Part shown: piece by piece, positions 42,474 through 43,309 of the stretch
How the letters are laid out: each line of letters begins with the position of its first letter
Position numbering within the stretch: the first letter of the stretch is position 1
Origin: Trypanosoma brucei
Taxonomy: Eukaryota
Assembly: GCA_000002445.1 (NCBI GenBank)
Contig: CM000207.1
Location: 160,001-224,000, forward strand
Direction: 5' to 3'
Length of the DNA: 64,000 bases
Notes under the pieces: generated by a model
What the model saw: the letters and a program-made list of their open reading frames with translations, nothing else
Told to the model about the DNA's origin: nothing
Databases searched by the model: none
Program-made: the position numbers and the translations under genes

Positions 42474-42745
42474 TACTTTTTCTCCAATTTAAGAATTTTA
42501 TAATATTTGAAAAATTTTTGTATAATTTAAAATCTTTTAACATTTTTCGATGAAATTGTGCAAAGTATTTAATGATTAAAAGTTTTTAAAAATTAAAGAA
42601 CAGAAAAATTGTGAAAACAGTGTATGGTGGCGGTTTAACAGTTTAAAGTATTGTATTGTAGGCTACAAAAAATGACTAATATTATGAAGTTTCTTTATTT
42701 TGCATATTTTGTGAATATTAGTTAGTATTATAATAAGAGCAGAAA

Positions 42746-43169
42746 TAATAATAATAATAATAATAATAATAATAATAATAATAATAATAATAATAATAAT
42801 AATAATAATAATAATAATAATAATAATAATAATAATAATAATAATAATAATAATAATAATAATAATAATAATAATAATAATAATAATAATAATAATAATA
42901 ATAATAATAATAATAATAATAATAATAATAATAATAATAATAATAATAATAATAATAATAATAATAATAATAATAATAATAATAATAATAATAATAATAA
43001 TAATAATAATAATAATAATAATAATAATAATAATAATAATAATAATAATAATAATAATAATAATAATAATAATAATAATAATAATAATAATAATAATAAT
43101 AATAATAATAATAATAATAATAATAATAATAATAATAATAATAATAATAATAATAATAATAATAATAAT
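42746..43169 (+). repeat. giant pure (TAA)n tract, about 141 copies, the TRR portion of a 70-bp repeat, ending in TGATAATAATAATGATAATTATGATAGGATAGTGTTGTGAG and running into the gap
   Basis: Direct read. About 424 bp of uninterrupted TAA, flanked by 70-bp-repeat core sequence on both sides (42725-42745 and 43170-43209). Confidence 0.9.
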
Positions 43170-43209
43170 GATAATAATAATGATAATTATGATAGGATAG
43201 TGTTGTGAG

Positions 43210-43309
43210 NNNNNNNNNNNNNNNNNNNNNNNNNNNNNNNNNNNNNNNNNNNNNNNNNNNNNNNNNNNNNNNNNNNNNNNNNNNNNNNNNNNNNNNNNNN
43301 NNNNNNNNN
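43210..43309. other. assembly gap (100 N)
   Basis: Run of n characters. True size unknown. Confidence 0.99.

Follow-up and report, generated by a model that had tools for sequence, protein, structure and literature searches.

A 423-bp pure TAA tract within a 70-bp repeat of a silent VSG array in Trypanosoma brucei

In a 64,000-nucleotide stretch of T. brucei DNA (assembly GCA_000002445.1, contig CM000207.1, positions 160,001 to 224,000), referred to below as the window and numbered from its first base, one of the 70-bp repeats carries a run of 141 uninterrupted TAA triplets and is then cut short by a gap in the assembly. The locus raises the question of what such a tract represents. It may be an ordinary 70-bp repeat in which the triplet core has expanded, it may owe its length to cloning or sequencing, it may mark the edge of a larger block of repeats that lies within the gap, or it may be an active element that breaks and rearranges the DNA around it. 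An initial annotation, made from the sequence alone, had drawn attention to the tract and to the gap, and its claims are considered below where the evidence bears on them.

The window covers a silent VSG array of T. brucei. It contains ORFs with Pfam VSG_B and VSG C-terminal domains, and the best protein matches are to T. brucei VSGs. From about 26 kb onward 70-bp elements recur on the + strand, and where the 16-mer of the VSG 3'-UTR is recognisable it is located 181-217 bp ahead of the next 70-bp element. The elements of the array, and the features that surround the tract, are as follows.

26005, 29931, 33044, 36288, 39557, 42725, 50495, 55526, 59426 and 62946, + strand: 70-bp elements, one per VSG cassette, every ~3-5 kb from ~26 kb
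41133..42385, + strand: 3' two-thirds of a VSG pseudogene, in ORFs 41133..42017 and 42074..42385, with the frame broken between 42017 and 42074 and a stop at 42385
42386..42724, + strand: AT-rich 3' flank of this VSG, ~340 bp from the stop codon to the 70-bp element, a length typical of the spacing between VSG 3' end and repeat
42725..42745, + strand: conserved 5' block of the 70-bp repeat, GTATTATAATAAGAGCAG followed by AAA; the block itself (42725..42742) has 17/18 matches to ATATTATAATAAGAGCAG
42746..43168, + strand: perfect (TAA)141, 423 bp
43169..43194, + strand: imperfect triplet tail, TGA TAA TAA TAA TGA TAA TTATGATA
43195..43209, + strand: first 15 bases of the GT-rich block, GGATAGTGTTGTGAG, interrupted by the gap, with 14/15 matches to GGAGAGTGTTGTGAG
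43210..43309: placeholder gap of 100 N, the only one in the window, starting 41 bp past the pure run
43310..43524, + strand: fragment of a VSG C-terminal domain with two in-frame stops, reading ...TEEKDCDTKKCDWNK, stop, KKECKVKWGQKLPLM, and cut in the GPI-signal region by the ingi
43525..48778, + strand: ingi non-LTR retrotransposon, 5254 bp, with Pfam Exo_endo_phos, RVT_1, RNase_H and zinc finger domains and a poly(A) at 48769..48778
48779..50133, + strand: 5'-truncated VSG straight after the ingi, without a 70-bp repeat of its own; the next element is at 50495

The first point to settle is whether the tract belongs to a 70-bp repeat at all. In such repeats an AT-rich block ending in ATATTATAATAAGAGCAG is found directly 5' of the triplets, and this block is present. 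It is followed by an internal tract of T-purine-purine units, mostly TAA and TGA, which is also present. The GT-rich block GGAGAGTGTTGTGAGTGTG, expected 3' of the triplets, is represented by the 15 bases that precede the gap, and the GGATAG variant of this block seen here occurs also in the 70-bp element at 29931. The strand of the element and its position after the preceding VSG are those of 70-bp repeats; this VSG pseudogene encodes the C-terminal motif EEKDCDKTKCNWNKEKSE and then, in the same frame, a hydrophobic tail. On the downstream side a VSG C-terminal fragment is visible past the gap. The locus fits each visible defining feature of the T. brucei 70-bp repeat, and the start coordinate assigned to it initially, 42725, is the first base of the block GTATTATAATAAGAGCAG.

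Comparison with the other elements of the array shows how far this one departs from them. The estimate of about 141 pure copies inside a 70-bp repeat was accurate, since the run is exactly (TAA)141, lies between both conserved blocks and is read on the + strand, the VSG-coding strand. Tandem Repeats Finder reports a repeat of period 3 with 148 copies and a 99% match at 42744..43187, and when all T-purine-purine units are counted the tract extends from 42746 to 43186 and comprises 147 units (145 TAA and 2 TGA), with its interruptions confined to the 3' end. The nine other 70-bp elements contain one or two units each; none has a pure TAA run above 16, and their triplets number 0-24, a range that our count of the other + strand elements reproduced. 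A similar disproportion is evident in the longest stretches free of G and C; the stretch that includes the tract (42743..43169) measures 427 bp and the runner-up in the 64-kb window 52 bp, so that the latter is ~8-fold shorter. Finally, in the window's other, short tracts 20/87 units (23%) are not TAA. At that rate the probability of encountering 141 uninterrupted TAA units is ~1e-16, too low for a chance event; the run is a homogeneous expansion and did not build up from ordinary triplet units.

Because the tract is placed between the conserved blocks, on the VSG-coding strand and with the customary spacing from the preceding VSG, and because it is uninterrupted, we favor the interpretation that the locus is a solitary 70-bp repeat of the ordinary type, that it belongs to a silent VSG array in the interior of the chromosome, and that its triplet core has expanded to pure (TAA)141. 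We assign this interpretation a probability of about 0.7. Slippage and unequal exchange are the standard behaviour of pure microsatellites, and the expansion would be a recent one, brought about by replication slippage and/or unequal exchange within the interruption-free tract. Since the surrounding DNA is silent and non-coding, the length of the tract would be unconstrained. If the tract has a cellular role, this would be the general one of 70-bp repeats, which is to supply upstream homology and a 5' boundary for VSG gene conversion.

The array in which this repeat is embedded has a distinct left border. At 26005..26073, where the GC skew changes sign and the + strand VSG array begins, a pure (TAA)16 run precedes the GT-rich half of a 70-bp repeat, whereas the sequence to the left of the run, GGGAACTGCAA, has no relation to such a repeat. 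An old junction within a TAA tract may be preserved at this position. To its left, positions 1..25000 have the opposite GC skew and include an ORF with a VSG_B domain on the minus strand (5311..6327); a search of the minus strand of these 25 kb revealed no convincing 70-bp repeats. Between 18 and 26 kb there are short ORFs only, and in this otherwise gene-poor stretch a short perfect palindrome (19254..19282) is composed of head-to-head triplet runs, (AAT)4 and (ATT)5. To the right of the border, after the first 70-bp-like element and ahead of the first + strand VSG, an ORF at 26829..27881 has a weak match to Pfam Galactosyl_T (E = 1.9e-6) and is probably a glycosyltransferase pseudogene of the subtelomeric kind.

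One VSG of the array can be connected with expressed genes. The ORF at 31202..32620 encodes 472 aa, is 96% identical to VSG 1125.1148 of EATRO1125 and has 50% identity with its best match in Lister 427. It is closer still, with ~99% identity, to a family of seven VSG cDNAs (AGQ49856-AGQ50254), which by their accession range we take to derive from the infections with TREU927/4 GUTat 10.1 described by Hall et al. 2013 (PMC3708902). Over residues 1-415 six of the cDNAs have 2-5 differences from the genomic copy and the remaining one, P0002, has 10. These changes are specific to individual cDNAs, with the exception of N129K, M164L, S203A and N279D, each of which is found in two cDNAs, and of A214 and A290, at each of which there are two variants. 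At the C-terminus the cDNAs diverge from the genomic copy and each has a different end; the genomic ORF is shorter there than the matching cDNAs, which encode 515-538 aa. Independent mutations and a donated 3' end are what would be expected of expressed copies, and by this protein comparison VSG 31202..32620 looks like the genomic donor of all seven. As sources of the window Lister 427 (50%) and EATRO1125 (96%) are disfavoured by these identities, and the window is most likely the TREU927/4 reference, which was obtained from clones by Sanger sequencing. Look-ups for exactly identical proteins returned no match for this VSG, for the VSG fragment 41133..42017, for VSG 61099..62550, for the glycosyltransferase-like 26910..27881 or for the ingi ORF 45277..48507.

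We now return to the tract and to the reliability of its length, which cannot be considered apart from the gap. The initial annotation placed an assembly break at the tract, and the window's one run of N is indeed here. The gap was said to abut the pure run; in fact 41 bp intervene, TGATAATAATAATGATAATTATGATA and then GGATAGTGTTGTGAG. The unique sequence at ~42700 and the end of the contig at 43209 are ~510 bp apart. Sequencing reads typically lose phase beyond a long microsatellite. A Sanger read that started in the unique left flank would have to cross these ~510 bp, near its length limit, and could lose phase once past the tract, which would explain why the contig ends 41 bp after the run. 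The reads of the ABI 3730 instrument are ~700 bp long (PMC4858185), and in Sanger assemblies gaps are reported to be confined to 70-bp repeats and are written as 100 N, following the convention of the Sanger Institute (PMC2567434). The gap is most likely technical, presuming that this is the clone-based Sanger assembly of TREU927/4; the argument from read length fails if the assembly was made from long reads. A more recent Nanopore study found that 7/15 expression-site contigs ended in 70-bp repeats, and its authors suspected that the act of sequencing is itself hampered by these repeats (bioRxiv 10.1101/2024.05.07.592375). Since both Sanger and Nanopore assemblies are on record with contigs that break in 70-bp repeats, the gap at 43210 represents expected behaviour and does not call for special biology.

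These considerations have two consequences for the way in which the assembly is read. First, the tract was said to be of unknown true length. This was overstated, since both flanks of the run lie within the contig and the assembly therefore states a definite length of 141 units, which is subject to slippage error; the part that the gap hides is the sequence beyond the tract. Given that sequencing fails at the tract, the figure of 141 should be taken as approximate. Second, the 100 N stand for a larger amount of sequence. From the geometry of a VSG cassette we infer that, if the scaffold is colinear, the gap would contain the rest of the repeat or repeats, the region upstream of a VSG and an N-terminal domain, in all ~2 kb or more. 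Those who work with the genome should note that the gap conceals at least a partial VSG cassette and that 141 is not an exact number.

A different interpretation of the same facts is that the length of the run, and perhaps its purity, are technical artefacts, generated by cloning in E. coli, by polymerase slippage or by the piling up of TAA reads from several repeats. The run lies 41 bp from a contig end, in the one class of sequence where Sanger gaps are found (PMC2567434) and where Nanopore sequencing has failed as well, and a consensus derived from slipped reads would also appear absolutely pure over 141 units. Moreover, AAT repeats of just 24 units gave rise to deletion products in E. coli plasmids (PMC3000339). 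On the other side, cloning in E. coli usually shortens repeats, so that the assembly would, if anything, understate the length of the tract. It is also hard to reconcile an artefact with the presence of proper 70-bp-repeat blocks on both sides of the run, in the right order and orientation; this indicates that reads crossed the tract and that the assembler did not simply run into low-complexity sequence. Finally, tracts of such an order do exist, as one described as (TAA)90 was sequenced independently in 1984, according to the title of that report as cited. On balance we consider it unlikely that the length is an artefact, and continue to prefer a real expansion of a solitary repeat.

The gap leads to another possibility, namely that the tract belongs to the first unit of a tandem block of 70-bp repeats like those of an expression site, the remainder of which would be hidden, in an arrangement that would resemble the "tandem 76-bp repeats flanking (TAA)90" described by the 1984 title. 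The end of the contig falls within the GT-rich block, at the very point from which a further unit would extend, and unresolved gaps of this type are classically due to tandem 70-bp repeats. Set against this is the pattern of the array itself, in which each of the nine other elements has one or two units, and the structure of the visible side, where 5' of the tract there is a degenerate half unit alone and no tandem 70-bp repeats. Arrays of the expression-site type have tens of tandem units, spanning 0.2-7 kb and more, beside a telomeric VSG that has ESAGs upstream; no tandem units were found 5' of the tract, and the neighbours of the element are VSG pseudogenes of the array. Judged from its visible 5' side and from these neighbours, the element does not look like an expression-site array, with the reservation that the gap could hide more units. 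We regard a hidden tandem block as somewhat unlikely. It is compatible with the expansion of an array repeat, which we favor, and in general the alternatives considered here overlap with that explanation.

What lies beyond the gap agrees with what had been described, a 3' fragment of a VSG (43310..43524) and then an ingi (43525..48778). We considered whether the fragment might be a collapsed duplicate of the 3' end of the upstream VSG, and rejected this because the similarity between the two, judged by eye in an alignment of the DNA, is ~70-75%. The ingi starts with CCCTGGCGATGCCGGCCACC, which we take to be the ingi/RIME 5' end, and it divides two unrelated VSG pieces, the stop-bearing C-terminal fragment upstream and the 5'-truncated VSG downstream. 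Comparison of its two flanks, ...CTCTTATGTG on the left and TAGCGGTGGCAG... on the right, disclosed no matching target-site duplication. The absence of such a duplication points to a deletion associated with the ingi, or to recombination of one ingi copy with another, rather than to a simple insertion.

The disruption of this cassette, together with the composition of the tract, invites the question of whether the TAA run is physically abnormal. A nearest-neighbour calculation of duplex free energy gives -0.82 kcal/mol per step for the tract, the lowest stability in the window, which has a mean of -1.33; the next least stable 400-bp stretch has a value of -1.10 kcal/mol per step. When the TAA and the TTA strand were folded, the minimum free energy was 0 for each, and each was less stable than 200/200 shuffles. 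A hairpin or cruciform model was rejected on the basis of this value of 0 on both strands. A pure, low-stability TTA.TAA duplex without hairpin potential is the hallmark of a non-H-bonded or unwinding element, and by calculation the tract has these properties. As it is free of G and C over 427 bp, has the lowest duplex stability and has no predicted hairpin, the tract is, according to these models, an easily melted (unwinding) element and not a hairpin-forming repeat. The calculated ease of melting agrees with the "non-H-bonded" structure attributed to TTA.TAA repeats by Ohshima et al. (JBC 1996), as cited in PMC3467770, PMC6292569 and PMC3000339. The repeat sequence is identical in the two cases; the unpairing was reported under supercoiling, in work that reportedly used plasmids with far shorter tracts, and the agreement at the present locus is one of calculated properties.

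From these properties it is a short step to the proposal that the tract is a functional or pathological fragile site and a recombination hotspot within the silent array, which the initial annotation had considered possible, and that it has caused the local rearrangements. The duplex of the tract, as the least stable in the window, makes such a role plausible, and (TAA)n has been proposed to stall replication and to cause breaks in 70-bp repeats (PMC3467770, PMC6237402). The disruption of the cassette directly downstream adds circumstantial evidence, and the (TAA)16 run at 26005, with its foreign left flank exactly at the change in the sign of GC skew, could be a former junction within a TAA tract. 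The downstream disruption is, however, explained more simply by the ingi, its lack of a matching target-site duplication included. Furthermore, the transcribed expression site is the setting with which breakage of 70-bp repeats has been connected, whereas the present array is silent, and 70-bp repeats were not required for gene conversion in vitro, in work cited in PMC4858185. An R-loop-driven mechanism is also unlikely, by inference from the silence of the array and the weakness of rU:dA hybrids. That the tract is a hotspot of this sort and caused the rearrangements appears quite unlikely. Still more doubtful, as an extension of the same model, is the idea that the tract is real and non-neutral, an unwinding element internal to the array that would serve as a preferred site of breaks or fork stalling, or as a cryptic initiation site, in an origin-poor silent subtelomere, and would in this way seed the rearrangement of VSG cassettes.

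How does the expanded repeat, as we interpret it, compare with what is known? Long pure AT-rich microsatellites and fragile sites of other eukaryotes are likewise interruption-free, prone to slippage and hard to sequence and assemble. The difference from these is that the microsatellite here forms an integral part of a signal that serves recombination in antigenic variation. The 70-bp (or ~76-bp) repeat of T. brucei has been described repeatedly (Liu 1983; Campbell 1984; Aline 1985; Shah 1987; consensus in Hovel-Miner 2016, PMC4858185), and the present element resembles it in possessing the same conserved blocks around a triplet tract, on the same VSG strand, in the same position after the 3' flank of the previous VSG, and in an array where there are one or two units per cassette. 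The number of triplets sets it apart, the canonical 76-bp unit having a handful and this one 147, of which 141 are pure TAA. That the AT-rich part of the 70-bp repeat varies in length is accepted in the field (PMC4858185). A literature search for the lengths of TAA tracts found nothing useful. Two older reports, both cited in PMC4858185 and PMC6237402, refer in their titles to long TAA tracts in the 5' flanks of VSG genes, Campbell et al. 1984 to (TAA)90 and Aline et al. 1985 to (TAA)n flanking several intrachromosomal VSG genes. The first of these (Campbell, van Bree and Boothroyd, NAR 1984) provides a close counterpart, a very long pure TAA tract in 70/76-bp repeats 5' of a VSG, as here. The present tract differs from that one in its location in a silent array, in having one visible unit and in being ~1.5 times longer. 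The (TAA)90 tract reportedly had many tandem repeats around it and formed part of the "barren region" of an expression site.

These comparisons bear on the description of the tract as unusual. Within the 64-kb window this is justified, as the tract is the longest by far, but long TAA tracts 5' of VSG genes were already published in 1984-85, and hence the kind of sequence has been known since 1984. What stands out here is the length and the location in an array, with the extremeness of the length being judged within the 64-kb window.

If the tract should prove to be an unwinding element that seeds rearrangements, the reading that we consider the most doubtful, hyper-expanded TAA tracts would be drivers of turnover in the VSG archive. 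If the length is real, whatever its cause, the array would constitute a natural experiment, in which a ~420-bp pure TAA tract is accompanied by nine 70-bp repeats with short tracts that serve as built-in controls. Breaks, replication and copy-number stability across the ten elements could then test the long-standing, unproven idea that the triplet part is the unstable and break-prone component of the 70-bp repeat.
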